Shown: positions 41,373 through 64,000 of the stretch, piece after piece
Numbering within the stretch: position 1 is the stretch's first letter
How the letters are laid out: every line of letters begins with the position of its first letter
DNA from: a phage
DNA length: 64,000 bases
Sequence record: NC_135732.1
Direction: 5' to 3' (one strand)
The notes under the pieces: model-generated
Databases searched by the model: none
Told to the model about the DNA's origin: nothing
Seen by the model: only the letters and a program-made list of their open reading frames with translations
Translations under genes and position numbers: made by a program

Positions 41373-41534
41373 ATCTGGTGCACGATTGCATACCTTGGAC
41401 AGATAATCTCATTACAGAGCGTTTAAGAGCTTCCTACAAACAAATCTCTCTTTCGAGCGTAGCGAGAACGCACGTCCGTTTTGACCCAAATCACCATACG
41501 CTCGGATTTTAACCAAACCCTCGCGGCGTTTCTG

Positions 41535-41563
41535 TTGACACATTACCGCTCTCGTGATAGTAT
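41535..41563 (+). promoter_or_regulatory. sigma70-like promoter
   Basis: TTGACA, 17-bp spacer, TAGTAT. Confidence 0.55.
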
Positions 41564-41583
41564 CCACACATCGTTTGGAGAAT

Positions 41584-41685
41584 ATGGAATACACAATGAG
41601 AACATTGTCTGAAGTTTTAGTGGTGATCCTGATGATCATTACATCCATAGCGGCTGTTGCCGGAATACTCACAGGTGGAACATGA
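41584..41685 (+). CDS. small hydrophobic protein, 33 aa
   Basis: Not in ORF track. GGAGAA RBS; ATGA overlap with the next ORF. Confidence 0.35.
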   Translation: MEYTMRTLSEVLVVILMIITSIAAVAGILTGGT

Positions 41686-41897
41686 TCAACACACATGCAT
41701 CTGAAGAGACATCCGAAGGAGTGACGACCATATGTAACCTGGCTGAGCCAGTGAAAGAGGAAAACTTCGATTCTGAAGATTCTCCATCTTCGCTCCAGGT
41801 AGACCCTGAGGCTGATGACCTGACGTGGGAGGACATCGTAGACATCTGGTTCTCTATTATGCCTGAGCACGAAGAGTTCAGAGGTGGTAGACTATGA
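41682..41897 (+). CDS. hypothetical acidic protein
   Basis: 71-aa ORF. Confidence 0.4.
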   Translation: MINTHASEETSEGVTTICNLAEPVKEENFDSEDSPSSLQVDPEADDLTWEDIVDIWFSIMPEHEEFRGGRL

Positions 41898-42017
41898 AGC
41901 ACCGAGCCCACACAGGTTCCTCATGCTAAAGCATGACCTGAAGAGGCAAACGTGCATAATTCCTGTGCATTGAAACGTATAAACCCTGTTCACACTCTCA
42001 TTCACAGAGGAGATTTC

Positions 42018-42233
42018 ATGAAGATAGAAATATTTGGTGGGGCTGACAACACTCGTGGCCTGATTTACCTTGAATTCGATGAATCATACCTGCCAGAGGT
42101 GTTAAATATAGACTCTGTTGCTGAGGCTTTGGGAGTAAACCCTAAAGAACTCCACTCTTGTGCTGAGATCGATGGTTGGGAAGAGACCATGAACATTGAT
42201 TTCAGTGAAGTAGAGGATGAACCGCTGGACTGA
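42018..42233 (+). CDS. small acidic protein (starts MKIEIFGG)
   Basis: Start ATG 42018 after GAGGAGA RBS. Confidence 0.45.
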   Translation: MKIEIFGGADNTRGLIYLEFDESYLPEVLNIDSVAEALGVNPKELHSCAEIDGWEETMNIDFSEVEDEPLD

Positions 42234-43699
42234 CACACAATTAGCTGCCCGGCTAAAGTGCTGGAAGCGCACCTATAACACATATTTCAACTAAATTTCC
42301 CACCACCACAATCACTTACCTACCACACGTGACTGTTTGCTTGTTTAGTGAGCAGTCATGCCTTGACATTCTTGCCTATCCTGATAAAATTAAGTTCTTC
42401 TCTTTTCTTTTACCGAGTAATTCGGGTTTTCTGTTCTCTTCGGTTTGAAGGGGTATGGAGATACACCTGAGTGAACAGGGTGAACAACCGAACCATTAGC
42501 TATGGCATTAGCATGGCGAAGCGGACGGGTGACGAAAGAGGGGCCGGAGGACACCAGTCACTGCCATATGATATATGGGTGATAACCTGAAGAGTCTGAA
42601 TAAGTGTTTAAGTACCAGTCAGAGGAAAAGGTGAATGGTAGCCGAAGGGGGAGGGGGGGTTTCTTGTATCTTTAATTTGTATATTATGTATACACTTGTA
42701 AACCAATTTCATATGAATCTGTTTACCACACAAAGTGGATTGAGACAAATATTACCTATTAAACTTGAATTATTTATAGAAAATACCACAACACACCTTA
42801 AGTCTTTGATTTTACACATAAATCTTACAGATATTCAACCTCCATATTTAACATACTTGTAACATATCCTATACCACACCTGCCTGATCAATTCCCCCAA
42901 CTACATCCTCTATATTTTCCCTGTCTGTACTACCCCATCCCCGCCGGGAGTCCCGTCATATCTGGCTTTCCAGCAAATATCACACCCACAAATATCATTG
43001 CCTGAAGAGGGTTTCATCCTCTAATACCTGCCTTACCTGAAGAGCGCTTCATACACCACGTAAATTTTTTAATTGACCTGCAATTTTCCCGTCATGACCC
43101 CCTGCCCCGCCGGAGAGGTTGGCTTTTCCCACACAGACCTGAAGAGTCAGCCAGAAATATCTGAACAGGCCCAATTCTACCACGATTTTGACCTGACCTA
43201 CAGGAGTGCTGCCAGGCGGACGAAATGGGAATACTTCTCATTCTTATAATAATTCTCAAATATCGAGGCAGTGAAGCAAATTAATAGGTGAGGCCGTTCA
43301 CATAGTGGCACAACATTTGCAATCTATTTTGTGTGGGGGAATGAGAATACCTATCATTGTGAGAACTGTTATCATTACGGGCAATTTAACATAATACCCA
43401 TTATGCGCACCACTGGCGATACATACAGGGATTGATAACATGAGTTACTGTTTACGCATATAACAATTATATTTATTACTATTTGTGTGGGATATAGTTA
43501 GCAGCCGATAGATTAGATATTGACCTGCGGACTTCTGACCGTCTAGACGTCTAAACGCCCACACAGCAAGAGTTATACATACATCGCTGAATGTAAACAG
43601 GGCCGCAAAAATGCTACCATACCAGTTTGTAAATTTTTCATGCAGCACTTGACAAAGAGGAGAAAAACTTGTCTGACATAATGTGACCTAACTGACACA

Positions 43700-43800
43700 A
43701 CATGACACTTTTACACACCTATTAGTTTACACACTGGATTGTTTACATTCCTGATTGTTCACATGCTAACCATTTACATGATTGACTGTTTACACACCGA
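43700..43800. repeat. Cluster of short direct repeats (iteron-like): TGTTTACA(C) and CATGACA
   Basis: Six or more copies of GTTTACA/TTTACAC within ~100 bp; further copies at ~44216 and ~44259. Confidence 0.7.
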
Positions 43801-43807
43801 TAATCAG

Positions 43808-44060
43808 CCATGCCATTCGTTTGCATGACAATAATTATACATGACAATAATCGCACTGATTATAATTAGCATGACATAATATAAAAGCAGGGCAACTATT
43901 AGCAGATCTATAGTTGCCTTGCTTGTTATGTCATGATTAACTAAATACAAGGCAACTATGATCTGATTAATAGTTTGCAGACAAACTATCACGGGGGTGA
44001 TGGTTACTGCTTTTATATTATGTCGCGACTCCGTCGCGCCATGCCATTCGTTTGCATAGT
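43808..44060. repeat. Composite element: 20-bp direct repeats flanking a 16-bp perfect inverted repeat and nested palindromes
   Basis: GCCATGCCATTCGTTTGCAT at 43808 and 44040; CATAATATAAAAGCAG (43875-43890) with its exact reverse complement at 44007-44022; palindrome GGCAACTAT...ATAGTTGCC at ~43891-43919. Confidence 0.75.
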
Positions 44061-44659
44061 TGCCTTATTGTTACAGATAAAATAATTGTATTGTTAATTA
44101 TTTCTTATCTTTCTATTAGTCATCTAATGATTTCAGTTAATATAGTAACGTACAGTAAACATTAGACGACTAAAGATTTCTCTGCTTATGGTAACCTAAC
44201 GTGACAATTCCAGACTGTTTACGAAAAATGTTGACACCTGGGCCGATTTATGTTATGCAGTTTACACGAATAATTATTTTATGCAGGTATTGACTATTCC
44301 GTTATTCTACGGTTGGAATAAATGCTTAGCAGGCTATAGAATGGCGAGCGTACGTAAATTCTGAGATCTGGCGGCTATAGTTATACTCGATTTTTCACGT
44401 AGAAAACGCTTTTGTAGTTATGTAAGTGTATGACTTATAAGAATTTTTAGTTGTTGACAAGCTATTGAAGATATGCATCAGGTTAAATTTTGTGCAAATG
44501 CTGCATTACGTGCAATTTTGGAAGGAAAAACGTGTAAAAATGGCCCTGCTACCACACAATGAAAAATTATGCAATAGTTATTTTATATGTATGTTTGTAC
44601 AGTGGGGTTAATTGCTGGCTTGTTGATTATTCCATTTGCCAGGCGGGGCCATTTGTGGT

Positions 44660-44700
44660 AGGAAAAGAGGAGACAAAAAGAAAGGGGCTTTAAGCCCCTG
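44660..44700 (-). terminator. terminator for the minus-strand block
   Basis: AGGGGCT-ttaa-AGCCCCT with a T-rich run on the minus strand. Confidence 0.55.
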
Positions 44701-44718
44701 ACCGTGCACCTTGTTGTA

Positions 44719-44931
44719 TTATTTGTTGCTCATCCAGTTTTCCCAAGCTGCCTGATAATCTGCCTCACTACGGCGGATCTCTTCTTGCTCTTCAAGGCGG
44801 ATCTCTTCTTCCAGGTACCCCAAGATGTCAGCCTTTTTGGTCTGGCGTAACATCCAATCATCTTTTTTTACGAGTGAAGATCTTATAAGCTTTCTCGCAA
44901 ACCTCTTTTTTGCTACCTTTCTGGACTTCAA
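44719..44931 (-). CDS. hypothetical protein
   Basis: 70-aa ORF. Confidence 0.4.
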   Translation of the reverse strand: MKSRKVAKKRFARKLIRSSLVKKDDWMLRQTKKADILGYLEEEIRLEEQEEIRRSEADYQAAWENWMSNK

Positions 44932-45060
44932 GAATTCTGTAGGCCATGTACTGAACTAATTTAAGCTGATCCAGACGTTTCATGATGTTTCCTCTTTATG
45001 TGGTTCGTTTTGATTAGTTGATAATACAGCAGTTCGCAGATCAGTCTTTAGCAATTCATG

Positions 45061-45279
45061 CTATTTACTCACAACGGTGTCGAAAACAAATTTTTCTTTA
45101 TTGTCTAAACTCACGTATCCGATTCGACCACGCAAGCCGCAAGTAGTGCCGTACTCGTAACCATTAAGGCCTTTAACCTTCCAATCCGTACCCATTAAAA
45201 CCGCATTATATTCCTGACCAACTACAAAAGCGCCCCCAGTCGATTCAATGCAAACAACTTTAATTTTACGGGTTGTCAT
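45061..45279 (-). CDS. hypothetical protein
   Basis: 72-aa ORF. Confidence 0.45.
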   Translation of the reverse strand: MTTRKIKVVCIESTGGAFVVGQEYNAVLMGTDWKVKGLNGYEYGTTCGLRGRIGYVSLDNKEKFVFDTVVSK

Positions 45280-45339
45280 TTTCTTTCTCTCTTTGTGTGG
45301 TTCTGATTAGTGGGCCTTTTGGCCCGTGTCATTATCTTA

Positions 45340-45612
45340 TTACTTACGGCGGCAGAATTCAAGCGTTTTTAATTGATAATCTTCCTCAGCCTGGAGTACA
45401 ACCGCCTCGATCATTTCGTTGGCATTGTTGAAGCCATACCCTTTAGCGAACTCATCCGCACCACCTTCGTGATCATGTTCTGCGTTCATCGCTTCCACGA
45501 AATGGAATTCAAGATTATTGAGATAAGGGCTTGATGTTCCGTCCTCTTTTTCGATGAGATCCCAAATAGCATTAAAACGTGATTCGACTTCTTGATTAAT
45601 CCAGCTTGACAT
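45340..45612 (-). CDS. hypothetical protein
   Basis: 90-aa ORF. Confidence 0.45.
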   Translation of the reverse strand: MSSWINQEVESRFNAIWDLIEKEDGTSSPYLNNLEFHFVEAMNAEHDHEGGADEFAKGYGFNNANEMIEAVVLQAEEDYQLKTLEFCRRK

Positions 45613-45865
45613 AATGTTTTCCTCTCTTCTGGTTGTTGTGTGGGCACTTTTGCCCCTTCAAGATAAATGTTACCCCACCCCATGGCAGATGTCAACGGTT
45701 TTTATAGTTCTTATATGACAGGCAGGCCCGGTGATTTGCGATCATAGTGATTCCTCCAGATCTTCCCGAACCTTTTCGGTTTATTCAGTTTATTGTTACG
45801 CTGGCGGCGTTCTGGCAGCTCTTCGGAATCGTGGGGGCGCTTTACAATTTTTTCGAAATTAATTT

Positions 45866-46213
45866 TCATAAATTTCCCCCTTTACTAATTTCAATATTTG
45901 CCTGAATCGCCCGGATACGACGTTTTATGACCTCCTGATCCTTGCAATCATATCCCCAAAAGTCTACGATCTTTGCGCCTCCGGCCTTTAGGCGGTATAG
46001 TGTTTCCTGCATCTTGTAAGCTGGGATCGGTCGCGGTGTTACCTGGTCGCCTCTCTCATCTTTGTACTTGATTATGTAGTCTTCGTTGTCGTTGAATACC
46101 CAAAATGGGTATTCTGTGAGCGCGTTGCTATCTTTTTCGTTTTTAGATTGGATCTTGTTTACAATTAAAGCCGTAGCAATAGCGCCAATAATAAAACTTG
46201 CCCCGCTGATCAT
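45866..46213 (-). CDS. hypothetical membrane-anchored protein
   Basis: N-terminal TM helix ISGASFIIGAIATALIV. Confidence 0.45.
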   Translation of the reverse strand: MISGASFIIGAIATALIVNKIQSKNEKDSNALTEYPFWVFNDNEDYIIKYKDERGDQVTPRPIPAYKMQETLYRLKAGGAKIVDFWGYDCKDQEVIKRRIRAIQANIEISKGGNL

Positions 46214-46287
46214 GTACTTTCTCCTTTCATGGTGTTAATAAATTATCTTTATAGATGGCCCTGCAACCAGGACCACCGAAAAAATAA

Positions 46288-46533
46288 CTATTTCACAATG
46301 CCTACAAAACAGATCCCGCCTTCACCTATATAAGCAATATCGGTCACTTTATAACTTGTCAAGATCTGCTTATTTAGTTCATTAATAAAATCGGTCATTG
46401 CGTTGGTGTAGTTGTCTTCCGTGTCTAAGGCATAATCCCAAGTGTACACCTTTTTACGTCCGAAGCCTTTTACCATGATACGGGCGCTTTTGGTGTTGGT
46501 AGGGGCATAATATTTGGTGATTAGTGCTGCCAT
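46288..46533 (-). CDS. hypothetical protein
   Basis: 81-aa ORF. Confidence 0.45.
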   Translation of the reverse strand: MAALITKYYAPTNTKSARIMVKGFGRKKVYTWDYALDTEDNYTNAMTDFINELNKQILTSYKVTDIAYIGEGGICFVGIVK

Positions 46534-46622
46534 GGTTTTAACTCCTATGCATTAGTTCAGTGTTAACAGTATAAAGTTTACTTTATTGATGGCCCTGGTG
46601 TCAAGGCCATCTAAAAATAAGC

Positions 46623-46964
46623 TTACTCGTTTTCTTCCAGCTCCGCAAGCTCTTCTTTTGCTTCTTCTAACTCTGTCTGTAATTCCTGGTATTCTTCATC
46701 GTCCTCAATATCCAGGCTGTCGATGTAGTCGCTAAATCCGCAGCGGTAAGCGATAGGATCTAGCTCCTTGAGGATACGCGACGGAAGAAAAGAAATGTTT
46801 CCGATCATAATTTCGCCGTAGATCTCGTCTAACCATTCATCATAGTTTTCGTCGTACTTGTCCTCGTCGATTTCAAAGTTATCGATCTTATTCTCAAGGT
46901 CTGCGATCTGTTTTTTCAGTTCAGCGATCTGCATAGCTTTTTCTGAGGCGGTCATAGTAGTCAT
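46623..46964 (-). CDS. hypothetical acidic coiled-coil protein
   Basis: 113-aa ORF. Confidence 0.5.
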   Translation of the reverse strand: MTTMTASEKAMQIAELKKQIADLENKIDNFEIDEDKYDENYDEWLDEIYGEIMIGNISFLPSRILKELDPIAYRCGFSDYIDSLDIEDDEEYQELQTELEEAKEELAELEENE

Positions 46965-47043
46965 GGTGTTTTTCTCCTTTTGTGTGTTCTGGGAAGTTTT
47001 CCCGTTTATGTGCTTATTATATCGATTTAAGTTAGCTTGTCAA

Positions 47044-47226
47044 TTAAAAGTTTAAGAAAAATTTTGCGACACCGTTGGCGCTACCCATCAACATTTGCGC
47101 CAGGATGTACCCAATGATGCAAACGATGATGGTTACCTTTGTGTGCTGGCGGGAAACATTCCCGCCTTTTGTGTCTAGTTTACTTAAATTTTGCAGCGTG
47201 TCAATGATTTTTATTCGTGGGCGCAT
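47044..47226 (-). CDS. small membrane protein
   Basis: 60-aa ORF with a hydrophobic helix. Confidence 0.35.
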   Translation of the reverse strand: MRPRIKIIDTLQNLSKLDTKGGNVSRQHTKVTIIVCIIGYILAQMLMGSANGVAKFFLNF

Positions 47227-47609
47227 GTTACAATGTGCTTTTTATAGCCCAGGTGGTCAGCAAGTGCCGACAAAAACTCTTCTTCGTAGATCCAGCCGTC
47301 GGCAGTGATCCCCATAGCATTTAATGCGCTCTCAAGTGCTGCGTTAGCTTTATCATAACCGTGACCGCTCGCCTTGCCGCCAGTATAGCCGTACTTATTG
47401 TTCTTGTTGTCGTGAATCCAAAACACGCAGTAGTGAGTGTTCCCGCTGGCGGCGGCATAATACCGGATCTCAGCTACTTCGTGCAAATTATTGTCATCGT
47501 CCAGGCCCACCAGATTATAAGCCTTGTAAAATCCACGATCACGGCGGCAGTTCTTGACATCAGAAAAAGAAAAGTCCGCATTATCAAAATTAAAGGTAGT
47601 GGTTTTCAT
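47211..47609 (-). CDS. hypothetical protein
   Basis: 132-aa ORF; no recognisable family. Confidence 0.5.
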   Translation of the reverse strand: MKTTTFNFDNADFSFSDVKNCRRDRGFYKAYNLVGLDDDNNLHEVAEIRYYAAASGNTHYCVFWIHDNKNNKYGYTGGKASGHGYDKANAALESALNAMGITADGWIYEEEFLSALADHLGYKKHIVTCAHE

Positions 47610-47673
47610 GATTTTATCCTCTTAGTGTCTTTTGTGCTTTTAGTGTATTTGGTGTCGGACTATATGTCAATAC

Positions 47674-47871
47674 TTATTTTTTATTAAACCAGTGGTTGAT
47701 CTGTCCTTTTGTCAGGGCGCAACGATTAAGCTGTTGCCGGGTATAGCTCTGACCGCGACGGAATTTATAAAGGCCTTGCCCGTTGTTGATGGTTACGTCC
47801 ACCTGGCAAACCATTTGATCGGTGACCACCTGGCGAGTGTTGCGACGTACTTTGATCCCGTATGCGTTCAT
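47674..47871 (-). CDS. hypothetical basic protein
   Basis: Track ORF trimmed to ATG 47871 after AAGAGGA RBS. Confidence 0.4.
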   Translation of the reverse strand: MNAYGIKVRRNTRQVVTDQMVCQVDVTINNGQGLYKFRRGQSYTRQQLNRCALTKGQINHWFNKK

Positions 47872-48289
47872 AAATTTATCCTCTTTACTGGTTAGTGCGG
47901 TGTTGTTCACCTTGTAGGGTAATAATACCATGATTAACCTTGTTGTCAACGATTATTTTAAATTATTTTTATGATAGAATCCACCTGCCGCCCCCGCCAG
48001 GTTAACCACCATTTTTCGTACTCTTCTTTATGTTCCCGCGCTTCTGTATCATTAATCACTACATTTCCCAGGTGAGTAGCATTACCTTTCATTTTTGTAC
48101 CTCCTCTTCAATTGTTTACCCTACAGCATGGGCCTACCAGGTTTGCAAGATTTCACCCTCTCCCACCTGGTCAGTTAGGTCCTGCCAGGCTGGCCCCGCC
48201 AGGTTGCAACGGTTAGCGCATCAGGTTAGAAAAATTTTTTGAAAAGGTGTTGACAGCGGCCCCGCCAGGGGGCACAATATACCTATCGA

Positions 48290-48520
48290 AAGGACGGCAG
48301 GCACCGGTGACGGGGGAGACAACCACCGGGGATGGGCGCTGCATAAAATGAGAACGGTTATCATTATCATTTAAAAATTTATGCAAAAAATCCTTGCCTT
48401 CTTTGTCCTGTGTGATACTATAATAACAAGCCGGGGCAACAGGGGCCGGGAGACAATCACCGGGCCTGCCCGTTATTCTGCAAACGAGAATGATTATCAT
48501 TCAAAATTCTAAATGAGAAC
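48290..48520 (+). repeat. Two ~90-bp imperfect direct repeats, each with a GC-rich hairpin and a shared GAGAAxGxTTATCATT box
   Basis: Unit 1 ~48291-48380, unit 2 ~48423-48520; shared core GGGAGACAA(C/T)CACCGGG. A TTGACA promoter-like site lies at 48250. Confidence 0.55.
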
Positions 48521-48628
48521 TCCTCGCATTTAATAAATTTAATTAGCATGCTAATTACCCTCCGTAACAATTTCCTATAAAACAGTATCCCATAAAATAT
48601 TCCCATATAGAAATTTTAAAAATCCATT

Positions 48629-48801
48629 TCTGAAAACGAAAAATCGATTTCGTCCCCAAAAATTTCAGGTCGAGAGCTGGAACGATTTCCAGAAAATCCG
48701 ATTCAGAAAACGAAAAACAGATCGAGTACTTGGAAATTTATCGAGAAAAATTTTCAGAAAATTCAATCTTTGAAACGAAAAACAGATCGAGTACTTGGAA
48801 A
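48629..48801 (+). repeat. Tandem direct repeats, three copies with period ~66-74 bp
   Basis: GAAA(A)CGAAAAACAGATCGAGTACTTGGAAA at ~48706 and ~48772 (about 30 nt nearly identical), plus a degenerate copy at ~48632. Confidence 0.7.
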
Positions 48802-49106
48802 GCTGTACCGCAACTTCAAGATAGTGGTTAGATTATTACCATAAAAGGTCAAGGGTAAGTGGAGGAAGTTCTAGTAGAAGGATGTGAGCATGTGCGGGAA
48901 ATCTGTAATGGTGGTCTGGAATATGGTGCAAACGATAGGATGAGCGATTCAGCTTGTCGCGCCTACTCTGAAAAATCCATTTTAGTTTTCGATCCATTTT
49001 CTGATTTTCTAAGAATTTTAAAATATCTGGTCCGGTTAAATATCAAAAGGAGGAAATCCATTTTAGAAATCCTCCTGATCTCTAGCAACCTGATAACTTA
49101 AAAATA

Positions 49107-49439
49107 TCAGGTGCCCAGTTTGTTCTTTCCTTTATACAACCGTAAGGGTATAGTTTTTGTAACAGTCCATCTCCCCAGCCCTTCCCAGTTCCAGTTGTAG
49201 GCATGGTACCCGGTTACGCATGCACTGCTAGAGTGGTCATAGGCATAAGAGAACGCTATACGCACCAAATGGAACCAGTCTTTCCACGGTTGTGGTCCGT
49301 AAGCTTTTCTCCAACACCGACACAAACTAAATGTCTCAAGAATAGGCAGGATAACAAATCCATACACCGCCACCAGAATAGCCAACGCAATGATTGTCAG
49401 GAATACATACCCTGCAGTTGAAACGATGATCTCTGTCAT
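49107..49439 (-). CDS. hypothetical membrane protein
   Basis: N-terminal TM segment VFLTIIALAILVAVYGFVILPIL. Confidence 0.45.
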   Translation of the reverse strand: MTEIIVSTAGYVFLTIIALAILVAVYGFVILPILETFSLCRCWRKAYGPQPWKDWFHLVRIAFSYAYDHSSSACVTGYHAYNWNWEGLGRWTVTKTIPLRLYKGKNKLGT

Positions 49440-49639
49440 TTGTCGTCCCCTTTCTTACGGATATAGATGTGAGAGCCTGCCTGTATATAAATTTCTCGAC
49501 CATCTTCTGCAAAGATATGAAATACACGATCACCTTCATACTCGATACGTGATATCTTCATAATGGTCTTTCCACCTGGGATGCGGATCTCGTCCCCCAC
49601 AGCGATGTTCCATGCAGATTTAAGCTTAAACATCTGCAC
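49436..49639 (-). CDS. hypothetical protein
   Basis: 67-aa ORF. Confidence 0.45.
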   Translation of the reverse strand: MQMFKLKSAWNIAVGDEIRIPGGKTIMKISRIEYEGDRVFHIFAEDGREIYIQAGSHIYIRKKGDDK

Positions 49640-49871
49640 CCTCCTTTGGGAGCTCTAACTCTGGCATAGCCATATACGCCACAACAGGGTTGTAATCAAA
49701 GTAGAAATGGCCGTTAATTATCCCAGTTTTGTGAGCATAGTCACCAGATCCTGCAAGAACAACCTCGCAAACTCCGAAATCCACCTTGCCATTCTCATCT
49801 GCCATGGCTACAATATACTTTCCTAGAGGCATGTTTTCAACGCCGTCTACAAATGTCCACCCTTTGTTCAT
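49626..49871 (-). CDS. hypothetical protein
   Basis: 81-aa ORF. Confidence 0.45.
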   Translation of the reverse strand: MNKGWTFVDGVENMPLGKYIVAMADENGKVDFGVCEVVLAGSGDYAHKTGIINGHFYFDYNPVVAYMAMPELELPKEGADV

Positions 49872-49891
49872 ACTTTATCTCCTGCATTCTC

Positions 49892-50224
49892 TTAAGGTAA
49901 CCAGTAAACAATCTCGCCTTTCAGCTTCATGTCGTTTCCAACATAAATTTGCCAGCCATCCATCTTAGCAGCTGCAGGCCCAAAGTCATCCGCACCCCTT
50001 ACCTCTTTCCAGGCCCAGTAGTCAGGCTGCCAGATGTAAAATCCACCTTCTTTGTCCCATGCTCCATACACTACGTTTAACAAGTTTCCCATTGCAACAA
50101 TAGTGGGCCGTGGGAACAATGCATCTACAGATGCGCCACAATTTCTGGTATCTTTTAAGTTGCAATCCCAAAAGATGTCTGCCAGTGTGGCGGCGATAGC
50201 TTTACGTCTTTCCAATGTTACCAT
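49892..50224 (-). CDS. hypothetical protein
   Basis: 110-aa ORF. Confidence 0.45.
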   Translation of the reverse strand: MVTLERRKAIAATLADIFWDCNLKDTRNCGASVDALFPRPTIVAMGNLLNVVYGAWDKEGGFYIWQPDYWAWKEVRGADDFGPAAAKMDGWQIYVGNDMKLKGEIVYWLP

Positions 50225-50231
50225 ATCATAC

Positions 50232-50423
50232 TCACTTGTTGTTAATAAGTTCTAAAACTTTCTGTCTTACTTTGTCAAGGTCTGTGGATTCAAAAACTGT
50301 ACGGTATCCCCAACTTTGCCCATAGGAGTGACTGCAATCCCCGTAGCACCATTGCTCAATTTGATAGTATTCAAGGAACGGGTGCTGTCTAACTATGATA
50401 CTATCCCGGTTAAAAATTACCAT
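50232..50423 (-). CDS. hypothetical protein
   Basis: 63-aa ORF. Confidence 0.4.
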   Translation of the reverse strand: MVIFNRDSIIVRQHPFLEYYQIEQWCYGDCSHSYGQSWGYRTVFESTDLDKVRQKVLELINNK

Positions 50424-50486
50424 AATACATCGCTCTCTGTTAGTTTATGCGTATATTATACACTGCAGTTTTCAGATGTCAACCTC

Positions 50487-50681
50487 TTACAGATTGCTCC
50501 AGTACAATCGGCATTTACATTTTGGGCAATGAGGTTCTTTTATGTAATAACCATCAGTCTTTGGAACACTTTTTGGTGCAGTTTTAAGATTGTACCTGGT
50601 AAAACATCGGAAGCAGGTTACCTCTCCCACCTGTTGATCGTTGATCCACTCACCAGAGTAAAGCTCTTTCTTGTTTCTCAT
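50487..50681 (-). CDS. small zinc-ribbon protein
   Basis: CFRC...CPKC; start ATG 50681 after GGGAGAG RBS. Confidence 0.4.
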   Translation of the reverse strand: MRNKKELYSGEWINDQQVGEVTCFRCFTRYNLKTAPKSVPKTDGYYIKEPHCPKCKCRLYWSNL

Positions 50682-50932
50682 AATTCTCTCCCAAATCATC
50701 TGCAATCTTATACCAAAATCTCCAGCCAGAAAGCACACGGGAACACTTTGAGGATTGAATCTTTACTTGGCTCGGAAGTTCTTTTTCCGTATGGTAGGTA
50801 GAAATACCCTCCTGCAGATTCGAATATAGCTCCTTCGGTTGTATCTACCACAGCAAGAATTAAGATTTTAGTCTCCACAGTGCTCTCCTCTCTTAGTTGT
50901 TGTGGAAACTATATCACCTCAGAAGATGGTCG

Positions 50933-51391
50933 TCAACACTTTTTGTACTCCACCACGATAATATCCATATCAAAAGTGGCAAGGTTAATAACGTCCTCTA
51001 CGTGCTCCCACTTCAAACCGCCTATGCCGCACCCGATCTTAGGGATGTAGAATGGTAAAGTCGATCCACCGAATACCTCGTTGACTAGCTCAAAGCCTTT
51101 CAGGATTGAGAAATATTCAGCATTAGGTCCTGGGTAGAACTGAGTATACAGATTGATTCCGTAGACAATACCTCTCGGAGATAAGTGCTCCCATCGGGAG
51201 AATGCACCCAGTTTACTTAGGCAACCGTGTCTAGTCTCTTTGTCGGCTGACAATGCTTGAGGGAACTCACGGGCAATATCTTTCGCTATGCCTGCACCCA
51301 TTGTGTGAAAGCAGTTACAACCGTGGATCATGTGTCCTGCCCCTTTCTTGAAAAGGGAGATTAGATCTCCTTCTACAGTATCAATAATCAC
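50933..51391 (-). CDS. macro-domain protein (ADP-ribose binding/processing)
   Basis: Segment GDLISLF...HMIHGCNCFHTMGAGIAKDI aligns by eye with the macro-domain GDIT...VNAAN..GGGV block; C-terminal GCGIGG. Start uncertain (GTG 51391, or ATG 51472/51490 with long overlap). Confidence 0.65.
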   Translation of the reverse strand: MIIDTVEGDLISLFKKGAGHMIHGCNCFHTMGAGIAKDIAREFPQALSADKETRHGCLSKLGAFSRWEHLSPRGIVYGINLYTQFYPGPNAEYFSILKGFELVNEVFGGSTLPFYIPKIGCGIGGLKWEHVEDVINLATFDMDIIVVEYKKC

Positions 51392-51806
51392 GGTATGCCA
51401 GCTCCTCTTCCGCAATTTCAAAAAACTCAGTCCAGCACTGTGGCATATTGGAGTTACCGAAGTGGCTTTCATAGTAAAGGTTCTCACCACTCGGGAGATA
51501 GAAATCTGTTACCTCATAGAATCCACAATCGTCGCACTCACCTTCTTCAAACTTGGCCTCGACCTTAATACCGAGGAAGGTGAAAAGTTTATGGATATCT
51601 TCAGTTTCGAACTCCCAGTGAATGTTGTTTTCCGCATCGGTGTAGAACTGGATCAGCAGACCATTGTCCAGTTTACCAAAATACTCTGTGAAGTAACTTC
51701 CTTCCCAGAAATCTTTATGACAAATAATATCCATGCGTTTGCCCATAATAATGGTGTGAGCGTTTTGGGCATCATCACGAATCAGTTTTGGCATTTCATA
51801 GATCAT
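51381..51806 (-). CDS. hypothetical protein
   Basis: 141-aa ORF. Confidence 0.45.
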   Translation of the reverse strand: MIYEMPKLIRDDAQNAHTIIMGKRMDIICHKDFWEGSYFTEYFGKLDNGLLIQFYTDAENNIHWEFETEDIHKLFTFLGIKVEAKFEEGECDDCGFYEVTDFYLPSGENLYYESHFGNSNMPQCWTEFFEIAEEELAYRDY

Positions 51807-51874
51807 CTTAGTTCTCCGGGTTCAACAGGTGGTGGTGCTACAGGAAGATCATAAAACATGGCTATCACAGTCTC

Positions 51875-52072
51875 TTACACAGGAATTGCTTCAAATAGAC
51901 CGTTATCTATACCGTCCTTCAGATAGAGATTATATTCTATATCGGTATCTGTATAAAGGGCAGCATCCAGCATTCTATCTGTGAGTCCATCCATCGGGTG
52001 GAGAAACCACCACCCACGCCAGTCAAAGTAACAGCCTGGTGCATCTTCTCTTACACGGATTCTATAAATCAT
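51875..52072 (-). CDS. hypothetical protein
   Basis: 65-aa ORF. Confidence 0.4.
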   Translation of the reverse strand: MIYRIRVREDAPGCYFDWRGWWFLHPMDGLTDRMLDAALYTDTDIEYNLYLKDGIDNGLFEAIPV

Positions 52073-52168
52073 GGGCAGTGGCCTCCTGTTAGTTATACAT
52101 CCCAGTTTTCTTCGTTCATCACGTCCTCCCGTTCTATGAAGTTATAATTACACACCTTTCAACTTGTG

Positions 52169-52585
52169 TCAACAGAAAACTTCAACAAATTCTTCCACAG
52201 TTTTAATGTCGTGTGAAAAAGGTTTACGGCTATAACGGGCAATAGCACTATCAACCACCGCCCGGTACTCCAAATCTTCAGAATATTTCATGAAGCATTG
52301 CAGCGTCTCTGGGCAGATAGCTAAATAGCTCCACCACCCCTCTTCAGATTGGTAGTCGAATCCCATACTCTCCAACCATGAAGCATATACGCCTGCACCC
52401 TCAAGCCAGTGAGTATTTTCATCCAGAAACTTGTTAATAGACATGTGAGCTTCTAAGCATTTATCCAGCTCTTTTCCGTTAACCAGCCACGCACTGACCG
52501 TGGCGCATCCAAAGTCTACAGATTGAGTTGACAGGTTGTATTGGTCATAGTTCTCAGGTTTAACAATGATATCTTCTAATGTCAT
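52169..52585 (-). CDS. hypothetical protein
   Basis: 138-aa ORF. Confidence 0.45.
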   Translation of the reverse strand: MTLEDIIVKPENYDQYNLSTQSVDFGCATVSAWLVNGKELDKCLEAHMSINKFLDENTHWLEGAGVYASWLESMGFDYQSEEGWWSYLAICPETLQCFMKYSEDLEYRAVVDSAIARYSRKPFSHDIKTVEEFVEVFC

Positions 52586-52599
52586 TTTTCAGATCTCCT

Positions 52600-52632
52600 T
52601 ATACAAAAATGCCCCACCCTTTCGGGCAGGGC
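52600..52632 (-). terminator. terminator; same 22-bp sequence as at 63599-63620
   Basis: GCCCCACCCTTTCGGGCAGGGC forms a GAAA-looped hairpin on the minus strand, followed by a T-run. Confidence 0.55.
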
Positions 52633-52647
52633 TATGTTAACTAGATG

Positions 52648-53874
52648 TTAGAATGGGATGTCATCATCAAAGGCGTACTGTGCTGGATTCTGATCCATCG
52701 GGTCATCTTCCTCGTCATTTACAGGAGGAGCGTCTACAGTATTTTGCTGTGAAGCAGCTTCCTGTTTGGCAGCTTGAGGTTCTTGATGGTCAGTGGACCC
52801 AGCACCGTTCTTGATCCAATCGTACAACGGCTCAGCCAGATTAGTCAAGACATCTTTTGCTTCTGCAGTAATTGCCGCTGCAAAATCATCAACTTTCGTT
52901 TTCTTGTCAATACGGCGACAAGCGTTCAACACCGCATTACCGACACTGGCACCTACTTCATCTTCAGTTCGGTTGGTGGCTTGAGCATACTCTTTCTTAA
53001 GCTCAATAGTGACTACGTGCAGTGTTTTAGCCACACCTAGTGGGTCGTCTACCTTAAACCCGCGATCCAGGATGATTTGCAACGCATTGATGCTATGTCC
53101 CGTCTCCACACCAATAGGGTCGTAAGAGGATTTACGCTTGCCACCAGAGCCTTGAGTGCCGTTCTCTGCCTTAGGTGGATAGGCTTTGAAACCACTGATA
53201 ATGTTTCCGGTGTCTTTGTCAACAATGGCTGCAACACGACCACCTACCACCAGGTCTTTAAGCTGCTCATCAGTAACAACCATGGCACCTTCGCCAATCT
53301 TGTGGTCATTAACAGTAACCACGTTGCCAACAATCTGAGTCACATCGCCATAGATGCGTAAAACGTCCTGATTGGCATTCTGCTGAGGTTTCTGCTTCTG
53401 GCCTTGTGATTGTGCACCTTGTTGCTGTTTTTGCTGCTGAGTCGCTGCTGGAGCCTCTCCTGCACCCAGCTTGACCATCTTAGCCAGTGAGCCTTTGTAA
53501 TAGGTCTTACCGTTATGCTCGTTTGCCTTCAAAGGGATATTTACGATCCATCCCGGCGTTACGGTTTCCCACTTGTCATCAATCTTAACAGAGACAGAGT
53601 CTTGATGACCAGGTTTAAGCAGCTTATCACCCATACTGATCCAAACTTCTTCACCACCTTGAAGCAGGTTATCAGAGGAATCCAGTTCAGAAATCAGTAA
53701 AGAGATGGTGTGGCTGGATTCAATTTTCTTACCTTGCCACACAGTGGTTTTAATACCTGTTGTAGGATCAGCACCTTTGATAGGTTTGATGCTGACACGT
53801 TTAATCATGCCGTGAGCCAGTAAAACAGTTTCACGCGGATTCATCGGGTTAGCGAATTGTTGAATAACGCTCAT
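52648..53874 (-). CDS. putative single-stranded DNA-binding protein with SSB-type acidic C-terminal tail
   Basis: Ends ...NPAQYAFDDDIPF (E. coli SSB ends DDDIPF); Gln-rich linker. No OB-fold alignment done. Confidence 0.5.
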   Translation of the reverse strand: MSVIQQFANPMNPRETVLLAHGMIKRVSIKPIKGADPTTGIKTTVWQGKKIESSHTISLLISELDSSDNLLQGGEEVWISMGDKLLKPGHQDSVSVKIDDKWETVTPGWIVNIPLKANEHNGKTYYKGSLAKMVKLGAGEAPAATQQQKQQQGAQSQGQKQKPQQNANQDVLRIYGDVTQIVGNVVTVNDHKIGEGAMVVTDEQLKDLVVGGRVAAIVDKDTGNIISGFKAYPPKAENGTQGSGGKRKSSYDPIGVETGHSINALQIILDRGFKVDDPLGVAKTLHVVTIELKKEYAQATNRTEDEVGASVGNAVLNACRRIDKKTKVDDFAAAITAEAKDVLTNLAEPLYDWIKNGAGSTDHQEPQAAKQEAASQQNTVDAPPVNDEEDDPMDQNPAQYAFDDDIPF

Positions 53875-54239
53875 TATTTGTCTCCTTGTTCTTCGTTAGT
53901 GTTTGCCGTGTGTGCAAACCCTGCTTGAATTAATTTGTCCTGAACTTGAGCCAACAGGCCCATTGCAAAACTTGTGGTCCCAGAGAGGGCCATCAACATA
54001 TCTCGTTGTTGAGCTACCCAACCTAAGGCATAGTCCAAACGACGATATTTTTCTTCTTCACGCAGAGCCTGAAATAATTGTTCAGCCTCCGGTTGTTGTG
54101 TGAGCTCCTGAAGTCTTCCCATGAAAGAAGAAAGCACTAGCAAAAGAGACACTTGATCTTTACTTAACCCTAAGAAAAATTCTTGAGGTTGTTCTTGCTC
54201 GTTCATCGCAACCGACGCTTGATCGTTCATTTGTTCCAT
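53874..54239 (-). CDS. hypothetical protein
   Basis: 121-aa ORF. Confidence 0.45.
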   Translation of the reverse strand: MEQMNDQASVAMNEQEQPQEFFLGLSKDQVSLLLVLSSFMGRLQELTQQPEAEQLFQALREEEKYRRLDYALGWVAQQRDMLMALSGTTSFAMGLLAQVQDKLIQAGFAHTANTNEEQGDK

Positions 54240-54322
54240 TATGGAATCTCCGATTTTATTTGAACAACATAGAAGGAGACACTATTTTAGCATCCCCTTC
54301 TGTAAATTACAATAGATATTTG

Positions 54323-54568
54323 TTAGCCAATCACTTCAAAAGTTCCCCAATTCCCGTCCAGCAGGCAGGTGATCGGATCCCCATCGTCGTCAAAGATTTC
54401 AAAGTTTTCAGCATCCAGGATGTGGCCCTCGAACACAATACTTTCGTCGCCACCACCAGAAATAACAGCGTATTCCTTACCTTGAGTCAAGTTTTGACAC
54501 CCTTTGCCACCAAAACCTACTTCAACACAACGTACTTTCTGTCCTGCGCGAGCAACTACTCCAGTCAT
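54323..54568 (-). CDS. hypothetical protein
   Basis: 81-aa ORF. Confidence 0.4.
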   Translation of the reverse strand: MTGVVARAGQKVRCVEVGFGGKGCQNLTQGKEYAVISGGGDESIVFEGHILDAENFEIFDDDGDPITCLLDGNWGTFEVIG

Positions 54569-54585
54569 CTTAAGGTCTCCTGATA

Positions 54586-54906
54586 TTAATCGTCAAGTTC
54601 AAAATAGATTTTAACAGCTTCATCAAAGATTGGAATCCCGATGTTGTTGATAAGCTGCCAAACTACCATATCTTTACCTGGGTCTGGGAGAATGTCAACC
54701 TTTCTCCATGCGCTGTATATCCAGTTCGGACCACCTTCTGCACTAACTGGCAGATTTTCACCAGCCTCCTGCAGATACTTATACAGCAAAAGATATTCTG
54801 GATACTCTAGAACACTGTCCTCTGTAGTATATAGCAGTTCACGGTATACTTTTAAGAACCCTGCGGGGGTGATGTTTTCAGTCTTCATTTGCTGCTTCTC
54901 CTGCAT
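54586..54906 (-). CDS. hypothetical protein
   Basis: 106-aa ORF. Confidence 0.45.
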   Translation of the reverse strand: MQEKQQMKTENITPAGFLKVYRELLYTTEDSVLEYPEYLLLYKYLQEAGENLPVSAEGGPNWIYSAWRKVDILPDPGKDMVVWQLINNIGIPIFDEAVKIYFELDD

Positions 54907-55267
54907 TCATCAGATCTGCCATAGCGTCACCCACGAAGAGAACAACCACATCGTTGATCGCGTCAGCATCATCTTTGTTGACGTTGCTGAATTTAGGACA
55001 CACAGCAATGATCATATAGACACCGTTACCAACCTGGACTGTCCGTGTGGTGCACATCATGGCGGTATTTGTGCCTTCTTTGAAGGCGAAGCCTTGAAGA
55101 CGCTCCTCTAAAGTGTTACCGGTAGATTTCAGAAGCGCCAGCTCGTCCAAGGCATAGATGATATCTCCGGAAGTTAGTGTTGCCTTGCCATCAGACACCA
55201 TAATCACTCCATCAGCACCGTCAAGCTTAGAGGCTTCAAAGATATCAATATCCCAAATATTTTTCAT
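54878..55267 (-). CDS. hypothetical protein
   Basis: 129-aa ORF. Confidence 0.45.
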   Translation of the reverse strand: MKNIWDIDIFEASKLDGADGVIMVSDGKATLTSGDIIYALDELALLKSTGNTLEERLQGFAFKEGTNTAMMCTTRTVQVGNGVYMIIAVCPKFSNVNKDDADAINDVVVLFVGDAMADLMNAGEAANED

Positions 55268-55599
55268 TACGCTTCCTCGTCGTCTAAGTAATCATCAAGA
55301 GAGGTGAAGATTTCACCGAAGTATTCTAAGATTGCTAGCTCACGTGTGGTGCAGCAAACATAATCGCCTTGGTCGTCCTTAATAGTGGCCTCTTTACCCA
55401 GAACATGCACTTCAAATTCATCGTTCAGCAGGACGGCCCCTGTGTAAACTTTGTCAGCTGTGCAGTCCCGAAAAGCAGAGTCCTTTTCCAGATAGTCTGG
55501 CTTAACCTTGGCTTTAATTCGTTGATATTGTTTGGTCATTGCTGTGGTCCCCTTTCGTTTTGATAGGGCCATTATATTAGGCCCTATCACTGTTGTCAA
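55267..55599 (-). CDS. hypothetical protein, paralog of 55603..55857
   Basis: Shared blocks AFRDCTADKVY/AFKDCTIGVVY and KDDQGDYVCCTTRE/KDDEGDSVWCTVNE. Confidence 0.45.
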   Translation of the reverse strand: MTTVIGPNIMALSKRKGTTAMTKQYQRIKAKVKPDYLEKDSAFRDCTADKVYTGAVLLNDEFEVHVLGKEATIKDDQGDYVCCTTRELAILEYFGEIFTSLDDYLDDEEA

Positions 55600-55602
55600 G
55601 TA

Positions 55603-55857
55603 TTAATGTTCAGGTTTTACAAAAACTACTTCATTAACAGTGCACCAGACAGAGTCTCCTTCGTCATCTTTAAAGGTAAGGCACTGTGCTGAGTTTTCCA
55701 GCTCATCAATCTCTTCTTGTGATAAAGGAGCCCCTTCTTCCAGAAGGGCTTTTACCAAAGGGTTCTCACAAAACTCTGCTTCATAAACTACACCGATTGT
55801 GCAATCTTTAAAAGCTCGGTCATTTTCAACGCATTCTGGCTTCAGAGTAATTTTCAT
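55603..55857 (-). CDS. hypothetical protein, paralog of 55267..55599
   Basis: See paired gene. Confidence 0.45.
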   Translation of the reverse strand: MKITLKPECVENDRAFKDCTIGVVYEAEFCENPLVKALLEEGAPLSQEEIDELENSAQCLTFKDDEGDSVWCTVNEVVFVKPEH

Positions 55858-55933
55858 CTTGGCAGTCTCCTTAATTATTTAAAAATCAACTCTTTGTTTG
55901 TGTGAAACATCTTATACCTAATCTTACTTCTTG

Positions 55934-56332
55934 TCAACGACTATTTTCAATCATCCACCAAGGATCAAGGTAGGTTTGTTGACTTTTTGCCCACTGGCAA
56001 ACATCTTCGTACATCTGAACTTCGTTTTCAGTCAGTTCGCGAATAGGCTCATCTATACCCTCATTTTTGTGGTAATCCCAGCTGGCATCGATTTCCCATA
56101 GCCACGGTTTGTTATTTCCACGTTTACGTACACAGAAGTCACCGGGACGGCCTGCCAATGCATTTAAGAACTCGTTCTCCGCTCGCTCCTGAAGAATACT
56201 AAGGAGCAAAACGTTGGAGCATGACCGTAAAATATGCTTCAGCTCACAATCATCAATCTCAACTTCAATACGTTGTTTGACTGTGTGGGTACCTTTTACT
56301 AACATCCTACCTCCTCTAAACGAACTCTGCAA
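55934..56332 (-). CDS. hypothetical protein
   Basis: 132-aa ORF. Confidence 0.45.
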   Translation of the reverse strand: MQSSFRGGRMLVKGTHTVKQRIEVEIDDCELKHILRSCSNVLLLSILQERAENEFLNALAGRPGDFCVRKRGNNKPWLWEIDASWDYHKNEGIDEPIRELTENEVQMYEDVCQWAKSQQTYLDPWWMIENSR

Positions 56333-56510
56333 GGGTTGTGTTGTTCACTGCACCGCAGTAAATGGAGTATCCCAGCCCATTAGAGTGCAGAAACCACGGC
56401 GTGCCGAAATTATCTTTCACGTAGACATCGCCGTTGCTTGTAAAGGGCCAATATTCTTCACCAAGGGTGAAATACCTACTCATACCCTCAGCCAGATACT
56501 TTACTTTCAT
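56316..56510 (-). CDS. hypothetical protein, three-member paralog family
   Basis: Motif DNFGTPWFLHSNGLGYSIYCG. Confidence 0.4.
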   Translation of the reverse strand: MKVKYLAEGMSRYFTLGEEYWPFTSNGDVYVKDNFGTPWFLHSNGLGYSIYCGAVNNTTLAEFV

Positions 56511-56734
56511 AGGTCCTCTTCAACAGCTACAAACTTGGCAAGCAGGGTGGTTCCGTAGATATGATACTCACCGTTTGCCAGATGGGAGATAAACCAGGCA
56601 ATCCCTTCCTCGTCTTTAATCATCTTGTTTGCACGATTTTTATCGTAATAAACCTCGTAGGTCTTTCCTTCTTTAAAGAAGGACAGGTCTGTCATCTTTT
56701 CTTCTACAAAAGTAGCTTTAACCAAAGTTGTCAT
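56507..56734 (-). CDS. hypothetical protein, three-member paralog family
   Basis: Motif DEEGIAWFISHLANGEYHIYG. Confidence 0.4.
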   Translation of the reverse strand: MTTLVKATFVEEKMTDLSFFKEGKTYEVYYDKNRANKMIKDEEGIAWFISHLANGEYHIYGTTLLAKFVAVEEDL

Positions 56735-57048: not shown

Positions 57049-57064
57049 GTGTTGATAGTTTACA

Positions 57065-60684: not shown

Positions 60685-60742
60685 ATACAGTTCTCCTTAA
60701 AGGGGAGGCGGTTGTACTACCCCTCCCACTCTTTGTTAAACA

Positions 60743-63620: not shown

Positions 63621-63626
63621 CTAGTG

Positions 63627-63998: not shown

Positions 63999-64000
63999 AT

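Follow-up and report, generated by a model that had tools for sequence, protein, structure and literature searches.

The DNA analysed here, called the window below, is a stretch of 64,000 nucleotides from phage sequence record NC_135732.1, and our subject is an interval of 1,014 bp within it (48093-49106) that contains no credible gene and lies amid a long block of small minus-strand early genes. The window is 93-98% identical to many rV5-like coliphages, and on this similarity we assign it to an rV5-like coliphage of the genus Vequintavirus, subfamily Vequintavirinae. Within the interval lie three direct repeats together with promoter-like sites, hairpins, palindromes and an AT-rich stretch (Table 1). 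We regard the whole as one conserved gene-free module, which went unremarked in the initial annotation of this DNA.

When the window was aligned with 13 relatives and identity was scored in 30-nt bins, the gap proved about as conserved as the neighbouring genes (identity 0.94-1.00), and its conservation is more uniform than that of the genes immediately to its left (47.9-48.2 kb), which vary more. Within Vequintavirus the repeats themselves are conserved on a par with coding sequence (0.88-0.99 identity per bin). Upstream of the gap in the same transcription block, at distances of 3.5-14 kb, are encoded a protein with an SSB-type tail, a family-A DNA polymerase (PolA) and a DnaB-like helicase. 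The first of these, a 408-aa (amino acid) protein, ends in DDDIPF, which we take to be an SSB-type tail of the kind typical of bacterial SSB proteins, and judging from its sequence it is probably the phage single-stranded-DNA-binding protein.

Table 1 Features of the gene-free interval and of its surroundings in the window
Feature	Position	Strand	Details
44-aa gene, gap neighbour	47958-48092	-	
bas54_0102 equivalent	48226-48500		covers P1, P2, hairpins, palindromes
bas54_0101 equivalent	48555-48659		covers AT-rich stretch and R1
bas54_0100 equivalent	48665-48811		covers R2 and R3
ORFs called in public records or PHROGs	48216-48500, 48555-48659, 48665-48811, 48859-49101		
Promoter-like site P1	48250-48278	+	TTGACA, 17-nt spacer, CACAAT; preceded by A/T-rich UP-like tract
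GC-rich hairpin element 1	48296-48345	+	motif GAGACAACCACC; ~98-100% conserved in 13 relatives
Fur-box-like site 1	48350-48368		GATAATGATAACCGTTCTC on minus strand; 16/19 to E. coli Fur consensus; conserved
Promoter-like site P2	48394-48424	+	TTGCCT, then TGnTACTAT (16-nt spacer) or TATAAT (19-nt spacer); read by eye
GC-rich hairpin element 2	48430-48479	+	loop motif GAGACAATCACC, then TTATTCT; conserved across genera
Fur-box-like palindrome 2	48486-48504		TGAGAAT-G-ATTATCA; 15/19 to Fur consensus
AT-rich stretch	48493-48652		~160 nt; 72-75% A+T against 56-58% in surrounding windows; runs into R1
Palindrome 3	48511-48533		TAAATGAGAACTCCTCGCATTTA
Repeat unit R1	48606-48662	+	core 48618-48655; 3' end CGATTTCGTCC in place of GATCGAGTAC
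Repeat unit R2 (reference)	48680-48736	+	core 48692-48729: GAAAATCCGATTCAGAAAACGAAAAACAGATCGAGTAC
H-NS high-affinity motif	48735-48744	-	TCGATAAATT; exact over 10 bp; in R2-R3 linker; invariant in 13/13 relatives
Repeat unit R3	48745-48801	+	core 48757-48794
Variable spacer	48802-48962		several alleles, 1-2-nt indels; identity 0.76-0.86; N-terminal half of 80-aa ORF
80-aa ORF	48859-49101	+	GTG start; mechanical ORF
Right conserved block	48965-49030	+	fourth, degenerate core: AAAAATCCATTTTAG, then TTTTCGATCCATTTTCTGATTTTC
AAATATC motifs (three)	49021, 49038, 49102	+	cluster 49021-49108
Intrinsic terminator of 110-aa gene	49036-49077	-	GGAGGA/TCCTCC stem, then UUUUGAUAUUU
110-aa gene, gap neighbour	49107-49439	-	
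408-aa protein	52648-53874	-	Q-rich linker; C-terminal DDDIPF; no Pfam match
PolA	58255-60684	-	same block as gap
DnaB-like helicase	60743-62821	-	same block as gap

Repeats, promoters and palindromes in the gap

Direct repeats that are not palindromic overall had been reported at this place in the initial annotation, and both points hold. The repeats form one family of three 57-nt copies, with start-to-start spacings of 74 and 65 nt, and R1 and R3 are 61% and 82% identical, respectively, to the reference copy R2. The 31-mer GAAAACGAAAAACAGATCGAGTACTTGGAAA occurs twice in the 64 kb (≤3 mismatches), which none of 100 dinucleotide-preserving shuffles matched; Tandem Repeats Finder did not call the array, because the linkers differ. 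The mean identity of R1 across the 13 relatives is ~0.94-0.99. To the right of the units, after a spacer in which no conserved ORF was found on either strand (48802-48962), the sequence becomes strongly conserved again, with an identity of 1.00 over 48980-49009 among the 13 relatives, and here a fourth, degenerate copy of the core (AAATCCATTTTAG...) starts at 48973, 172 nt after unit 3. Another degenerate core copy lies inside the loop of the GGAGGA/TCCTCC hairpin, at 49054.

To the left of the repeats, two promoter-like sites, P1 and P2, are found on the plus strand, opposite to all surrounding genes. P1 scores 10/12 in a promoter scan, is invariant in the 13 relatives and fits the early-promoter consensus of the related genus Certrevirus, AAAA(N3)TGTTGAC(N19)TATAAT (PMC7344957). 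P2 was not called by a simple promoter scanner; a -35/-10 pair is present at the equivalent place in anhysbys, PVP-SE1 and CR8. Each site is followed by a GC-rich hairpin, and the two hairpin elements are paralogous (48314-48365 versus 48448-48501, 72% identity) and share the invariant motif GAGACAAnCACC. Structural support for element 2 is weak: RNAalifold predicted 16 pairs, with a compensatory change in 1 of the 16. The duplicated arrangement, a promoter and its hairpin at 48250-48345 and again at 48394-48479, makes both units candidate small RNAs, judging from the sequence.

Between the promoters and the repeats, the Fur-like sites at 48350 and 48486 are the best matches in the 64-kb window to the 19-bp consensus GATAATGATAATCATTATC. 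Their palindromic core, TGAGAAT-N-ATTMTCA, is also found at 43340-43378. All genera share a G at one half-site position where Fur sites usually have T, and the ligand may therefore be another, possibly phage-encoded, protein and not Fur. Outside Vequintavirus, blastn detected no part of the gap except the ~90-nt palindrome stretch around 48486-48533. The palindromes are conserved across two phage subfamilies (for example at positions 1534-1652 and 1598-1705 of the related loci L018 and L013), and in CR8 and anhysbys they form arrays of 3-4 copies with a 29-nt period. As a separate observation, about 1,000 of 5,426 E. coli genomes (chromosomes and plasmids) contain a 35-nt intergenic sequence that is 86% similar to Fur-like box 1 and its flanks; in the one example examined (NZ_CP025916.1, L040:1501-1532) it sits between a gene for a helix-turn-helix protein and IS66-family genes. 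The AT-rich stretch at 48493-48652 is a candidate DNA-unwinding region.

None of the open reading frames (ORFs) called in the gap behaves as a gene. The 80-aa plus-strand ORF, which the initial annotation had highlighted downstream of the repeats, is cut to 59, 48, 31 or 26 aa or changes frame in the 13 aligned relatives, and its substitutions are spread over the codon positions as 34/35/47 (p=0.37). This ORF and the two minus-strand ORFs called by annotators show no third-position excess (p=0.3-0.5), whereas the four flanking genes used as controls have a third-position bias with p=2e-4 to 2e-13. In 4 of 13 natural isolates the bas54_0101-type ORF is interrupted by premature stop codons, and its substitutions are 8/8/10; the bas54_0100-type ORF lacks a start codon in most relatives, is frame-shifted in YP-6 and has substitutions of 19/20/15. 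A Pfam search of the gap ORFs gave no match, and GenBank records disagree over their strand, frame and length. Two PHROG families, phrog_14993 and phrog_35702, are built from ORFs in the module; matches to them merely reflect annotated copies of near-identical DNA, and the public annotations look like propagated mis-annotations. On this sequence evidence we conclude that neither the 80-aa ORF nor the other gap ORFs are genes.

This conclusion also bears on how the array arose. Had it been a neutral tandem duplication next to a real small gene of 80 aa, the PHROG families for two gap ORFs and the several GenBank records that annotate ORFs here would be readily accounted for. That explanation is hardly credible, given that the annotators disagree, that the ORFs are broken in natural isolates and carry no codon periodicity, that the repeats recur in five genera and that the region is essential (see below), and we have rejected it.

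The hairpin near the right end of the gap (arms GGAGGA at 49049-49054 and TCCTCC at 49070-49075) had been described as the end of the 80-aa ORF. The hairpin itself is real, with a stem of ~-14 to -21 kcal/mol that is present in 13/13 relatives, but its U-run follows on the minus strand only. Because of this, and because the stem is kept through compensatory changes (GGAGAA/TTCTCC, and a wholly different stem in YP-6), we assign it to the 110-aa minus-strand gene as an intrinsic terminator.

Conservation across genera and transposon evidence

The initial annotation had allowed that the repeats might degenerate in relatives, as a simple duplication would. They are instead retained in five genera of the Vequintavirinae including that of the window, with three units each and a period of 63-78 bp. 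In each of the four other genera examined, exactly three units lie in the syntenic gene-free gap, at spacings of 67/75 nt in Salmonella phage PVP-SE1, 67/74 nt in Klebsiella phage BIS47, 63/78 nt in Cronobacter phage CR8 and 65/67 nt in Serratia phage Kashira. The 15 aligned units of these five genera define a ~36-nt core, nnAAAATACGATnTnGAAAnTGAAAAAnCGATCGAGWAC (in short form ..AATACGAT..GAAA..GAAAAA.CGATCGAGWAC), which terminates in the dyad CGATCG or TCTCGATCGAGA and includes GATC. The linkers (27-40 nt) differ between genera and often contain A5T6 tracts, as in PVP-SE1 and BIS47. When viral contigs were scanned for a two-unit pattern, the same ordered module was recovered at 13 loci. Each genus has a degenerate fourth core downstream, which in PVP-SE1, BIS47 and Kashira lies 216-298 nt further on than the matching unit; in those related viral contigs that are long enough, it is followed by 2-5 clustered AAATATC copies, ~160-250 nt past unit 3. 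In Phapecoctavirus, which belongs to a different subfamily, the layout is kept and the AT-rich repeat sequence is different; a repeat sequence that changes while its layout is kept is the pattern expected of binding sites that co-evolve with their binding protein. What is conserved is sequence, number and spacing, and this suggests that proteins recognise the units, most simply as DNA.

The other genera also encode one small plus-strand ORF just upstream of P1 (60-88 aa, in a PHROG of unknown function; positions 1075-1341, 1097-1279, 1073-1258 and 1028-1294 of related loci L013, L016, L017 and L019, respectively). This is the sole gene on that strand in the block and is missing from rV5-like phages, the window included. 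Its copy in anhysbys has a segment that looks, by eye, like a helix-turn-helix, and its product could bind the palindromes or the cores.

The functional importance of the module can be judged from saturated transposon libraries of phage Bas54 (MaxBurger, MZ501093), reported in a 2025 preprint (10.1101/2025.11.20.689424, Extended Data Table 8). Bas54 is ~94% identical to the window, onto which its coordinates were placed by alignment, and the published counts are per annotated ORF, not per site. In bas54_0101, none of 11 TA sites was hit (mean reads 0) and the ORF was called Essential. In bas54_0100, 1 of 3 TA sites was hit with a mean of 5 reads and the call was NA, and bas54_0102, with hits at 5 of 15 sites and a mean of 12.7 reads, was scored as having a Strong fitness defect. 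By comparison, the neighbours 0098, 0099 and 0103 took hits at 12-18 of their 14-21 TA sites, with mean reads of 150-220 (0098 and 0099 Non-essential, 0103 Intermediate), so that read counts over R2-R3 are ~40-fold below those of the neighbouring genes. Genes 0096-0099 and 0104-0109 of Bas54 are all non-essential (10.1101/2025.11.20.689424), and polarity on neighbours therefore does not explain the insertion gap.

Since the ORFs over bas54_0100-0102 show no coding signal, we conclude that the essential entity there is the non-coding module and not proteins. The module is thus essential or nearly so in Bas54, and the transposon data bear on this essentiality only, not on cis action or replication. 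The initial annotation had preferred regulatory tandem repeats; that the repeats are functional stands, but in light of these data "regulatory" is too weak a word for a region that is essential or nearly so. The preprint itself comments solely on a different intergenic region of ~2 kb (10.1101/2025.11.20.689424). Going by gene order, the 408-aa protein with the SSB-type tail is probably bas54_0087, which was called essential.

That different region brings in the genome ends. By position, the ~2-kb insertion-free region of Bas54 and the terminal repeat of Klebsiella phage KPP-1 both correspond to 41.4-44.7 kb of the window. In KPP-1 a 514-bp terminal repeat was mapped to 116,316-116,829 by coverage and PhageTerm (PMC9862379); its place is the large non-coding region of convergence, and the module of that phage (124,874-125,770) is 8.5 kb away, which rules out, for KPP-1, that the module is the terminal repeat. 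Packaging and genome ends thus probably belong to the convergent region, and with these so assigned an origin of replication becomes the most economical reading for the module. The distance from the module to the convergent region is 3.4 kb in the window and 10-12 kb in Bas54 and rV5. As for the ends in other relatives, phiTE and PVP-SE1 were reported to be circularly permuted (PMC3475682), and for a Vequintavirus PhageTerm is reported to have indicated headful packaging (PMC13211470).

In the window, the convergent region (41400-44700) comprises 3.3 kb, nearly devoid of ORFs, at the point where the plus- and minus-strand gene blocks converge. Numerous TGTTTACA-type repeats occur in it, along with long inverted repeats (18 nt, 100% identity, 43873/44007), AAATATC pairs (42975/42990) and Fur-like boxes. 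Both sides of the module carry minus-strand genes, and they differ in base composition: AT skew is ~-0.18 on the left (44000-48000) and ~-0.07 on the right (49000-64000), and GC skew is ~-0.04 on the left and ~-0.13 on the right. At the left end of the window, ARAGORN called a 99-nt tRNA (positions 13-111, minus strand) to which it gave no identity and a four-base anticodon, atcc; this tRNA adjoins tRNA-Ser, tRNA-Tyr and tRNA-Arg, scores just 35.5 bits with Rfam and could be intron-containing, frameshift-suppressor-like or a pseudogene.

Possible functions of the module

In our reading, the module is an essential, conserved, non-coding cis-acting element, and our best guess, offered tentatively, is that it serves as a transcription-activated replication origin with iteron-like sites. 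The two strong sigma-70 promoters P1 and P2 would fire G-rich, hairpin-forming transcripts into the 160-bp AT-rich stretch. The three ~36-bp cores, together with the fourth, degenerate core ~170-300 bp further on, would act as iteron-like sites for a protein that organises or opens the DNA, and the Fur-box-like palindromes between promoters and repeats could gate the origin via host Fur or a phage repressor. Replication initiation would then be the essential function, with proteins bound to the cores and P1/P2 transcripts activating or priming replication. Iteron origins are recognised by at least three conserved direct repeats in the same orientation and by an adjacent AT-rich region; here there are three units plus one degenerate copy, and the AT-rich stretch adjoins them. 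An origin is further favoured by the fixed count and period and the conserved core in five genera while linkers vary, by conservation that resides in sequence and not in pairing, by a gap that is conserved yet without coding signal, and by the position of the module downstream of replication genes in one transcription block.

Known origins offer two sets of likenesses. With the iteron origins (lambda ori, P1 oriR, SPP1 oriL and P4 ori/crr) the module shares several same-orientation direct repeats in fixed number, internal dyads (CGATCG, TCTCGATCGAGA), A-tract linkers, an adjacent AT-rich stretch, GATC sites, a presumably cis-essential character, and a repeat sequence that changes between phage lineages at constant layout. 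It differs from them in its core of ~36 bp and in having no adjacent initiator gene and no DnaA or IHF sites. In its order of promoters, AT-rich stretch and repeats, the module is similar to the transcription-dependent origins of T7 and T4. With this class (the T7 primary origin with 1.1A/1.1B and its AT-rich region, T4 oriF/oriG and ColE1 RNA II), tandem promoters into an AT-rich region, non-coding G-rich transcripts that could favour an R-loop, and a location in the early region near replication genes are held in common, whereas no triple 36-bp array and no Fur-like operators are known from these origins.

Several observations weigh against an origin. The module lacks exact DnaA boxes (TTWTNCACA is matched three times, each with one mismatch) and exact IHF matches; no known initiator gene is present; and the period of 63-78 bp is far above that of classical iterons (~20-23 bp). 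Large lytic phages can often do without any single origin, as is the case for T4 and T7, whereas this module is not dispensable, and its essentiality is therefore at least equally compatible with an essential RNA or with a site for entry or packaging. Base skews (GC and AT) track the direction of transcription; a shift at the module is seen, but of the wrong sense for an origin, with no origin-type switch and with GC skew, if anything, more negative rightward. The 41.4-44.7 kb region, equally insertion-intolerant in Bas54, could itself hold the origin. The transposon data come from a ~94% relative and are resolved per ORF, with just three TA sites in R2-R3. In the rV5 genome paper the module is covered by annotated ORFs 198 and 199, and skew analysis located no origin (PMC3606486). 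Our literature search found no description of the module, of an origin or of a transcriptome for these phages.

Part of the same evidence would suit a cis-acting site for genome entry or packaging, be it an analogue of the T5 injection-stop (iss) region, a T7-like promoter-driven entry of DNA, or a terminase recognition site; we consider this unlikely. The module is essential and non-coding, and, like the T5 iss or repeat region 3, it is an untranslated stretch of roughly 1-1.6 kb (1.2-1.6 kb in T5) within early genes, rich in direct repeats (in T5 including a 66-bp DRE), inverted repeats and palindromes, whose order is conserved across relatives, more so than adjacent genes, and which is presumed cis-essential (10.1101/866236). 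Uniform conservation next to the variable genes at 47.9-48.2 kb is again seen here, P1 and P2 alone among the promoters point inward, in a block whose genes point outward, and the module would lie 3.4-11.6 kb inside one genome end if the ends match the position of the KPP-1 terminal repeat. There is also a loose likeness to the pac sites of P1 and SPP1 in the succession of three repeats, variable spacer and further motif cluster. However, T5 has eight paired DnaA boxes, a 10-kb terminal repeat and a documented two-step injection, and shows no sequence similarity to the module, which has neither paired DnaA boxes nor a place inside the one terminal repeat mapped in this subfamily; exact DnaA boxes, on which the T5 iss model relies, are absent. 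Moreover, the sole mapped terminal repeat, that of KPP-1, is outside the module, genomes of phages in this group were reported as permuted or headful (PMC3475682, PMC13211470), and the distance to the large non-coding region varies threefold among relatives.

If instead the products of P1 and P2 were what matters, the module would encode an essential non-coding RNA, either short hairpin RNAs or a longer transcript that sponges an RNA-binding protein or nuclease via its A-rich cores. Two conserved promoter-like sites opposite the genes, each followed by a conserved GC hairpin with GAGACAAnCACC, the conserved TTATTCT after the hairpin (which could be a weak terminator), the strong fitness defect of insertions in the promoter/hairpin part, the GAAAAY/GAAAAAC runs of the cores and the use by phiTE of a repeat RNA against a host toxin (PMC3475682) all speak for it. 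Yet the cores have neither a consensus fold nor an energy signal on either strand, and no Rfam family: RNAalifold predicted 0 pairs for the 15 units from five genera, folding energies of the repeat region were no better than those of shuffles (z = -0.77 and +0.21 for the two strands), and Rfam searches of the window and five related loci at gathering and permissive thresholds gave chance-level matches only. Sponge or antitoxin arrays grow and shrink in copy number, whereas the module keeps three copies; the hairpin shows little covariation (1/16 pairs), and the literature search found no transcript data for this phage group. Such an RNA strikes us as rather unlikely. A transcription-control hub, that is, an operator array by which a phage or host regulator (Fur, H-NS or similar) times the flanking early genes while the repeats play an architectural part, is quite unlikely. 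It could draw on the Fur-like palindromes as the window's best Fur-consensus matches and on their counterparts at 43340-43378, on the exact H-NS nucleation motif at 48735 (minus strand), on the A5T6 linkers in PVP-SE1 and BIS47, and on the location of the module between a terminator and the next gene. The flanking genes are, however, individually dispensable in Bas54, so that misregulation would need to be toxic; no convincing minus-strand promoter for the downstream genes was seen within the repeats; and no regulator gene was identified, the small plus-strand ORF of other genera being absent from the window.

A very improbable alternative is an anti-defence decoy, in the form of a CRISPR-like mini-array (an RNA anti-CRISPR) or a type III pseudo-antitoxin resembling pseudo-ToxI. 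The superficial repeat-spacer look invites the former, as short repeats between unique segments of similar length are also seen in CRISPR mini-arrays and solitary repeat units. In agreement with the initial annotation, we reject a CRISPR array: the module has no cas gene, repeat hairpin or host-shared repeat, its copies are only 61-82% alike and number three in all five genera, and the inter-core segments are not hypervariable in the 13 relatives, the linkers being genus-conserved rather than spacer-like and without turnover. Nor are the repeats known to resemble E. coli CRISPR repeats. For a pseudo-antitoxin there is a precedent in the same subfamily, as a pseudo-ToxI repeat RNA of the relative phiTE defeats a type III toxin-antitoxin system (PMC3475682); this too is a non-coding intergenic tandem repeat, and the ~36-nt core equals the ToxI unit in length. 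But the phiTE repeat comprises 1.5 head-to-tail copies that expand under selection and are like the host ToxI, whereas the module has three copies set apart by linkers of 27-36 nt, their number fixed across genera with different hosts, and forms no RNA pairs. The phiTE locus lies elsewhere, by tRNAs and the terminase gene, which excludes synteny, and we regard a type III antitoxin or pseudo-antitoxin as very unlikely on these grounds and for want of a host counterpart. The repeat region had no similar sequence in 5,426 complete E. coli genomes, nor in plasmids save for one record, apparently a mis-filed phage genome. The two-unit pattern gave 63 scattered matches in 185,579 species genomes, which look like chance, and none in Enterobacterales. 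The proteins tested beside the gap were all of unknown function in PHROGs, without a Pfam match or a cas gene. Finally, the module is required on a K-12 laboratory host, and phages of five host genera share its core, as one would expect of a core function more than of a decoy aimed at particular hosts.

Returning to the origin reading, its most far-reaching form would describe a subfamily-wide essential cis element in which Fur-gated transcripts, made by host RNA polymerase from two antisense promoters, start replication, or drive entry, at a three-plus-one array of long period (63-78 bp). All these parts together we hold to be unlikely.

Implications for rV5-like phages

Whichever function applies, the module belongs among the known cis-acting, repeat-bearing control regions of phage genomes. 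What is new is that three annotated ORFs of a published map, one of them essential and one with a strong fitness defect, are a non-coding element; if the cis element is confirmed, bas54_0101 and its impaired neighbours bas54_0100 and bas54_0102 would be non-coding and not proteins. Therapeutic and biocontrol cocktails make wide use of rV5-like phages, which are also being engineered and whose origin and cis-essential sites have so far been undefined. For genome engineers, the module, which is conserved from E. coli phages to those of Salmonella, Klebsiella, Cronobacter and Serratia, marks DNA not to disrupt or delete. It also offers short testable targets in the 36-bp cores, the Fur-like palindromes, P1 and P2. 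Should the link to Fur prove true, these would be a rare case of strictly lytic phages in which an essential step of replication or entry is coupled to the iron status of the host.

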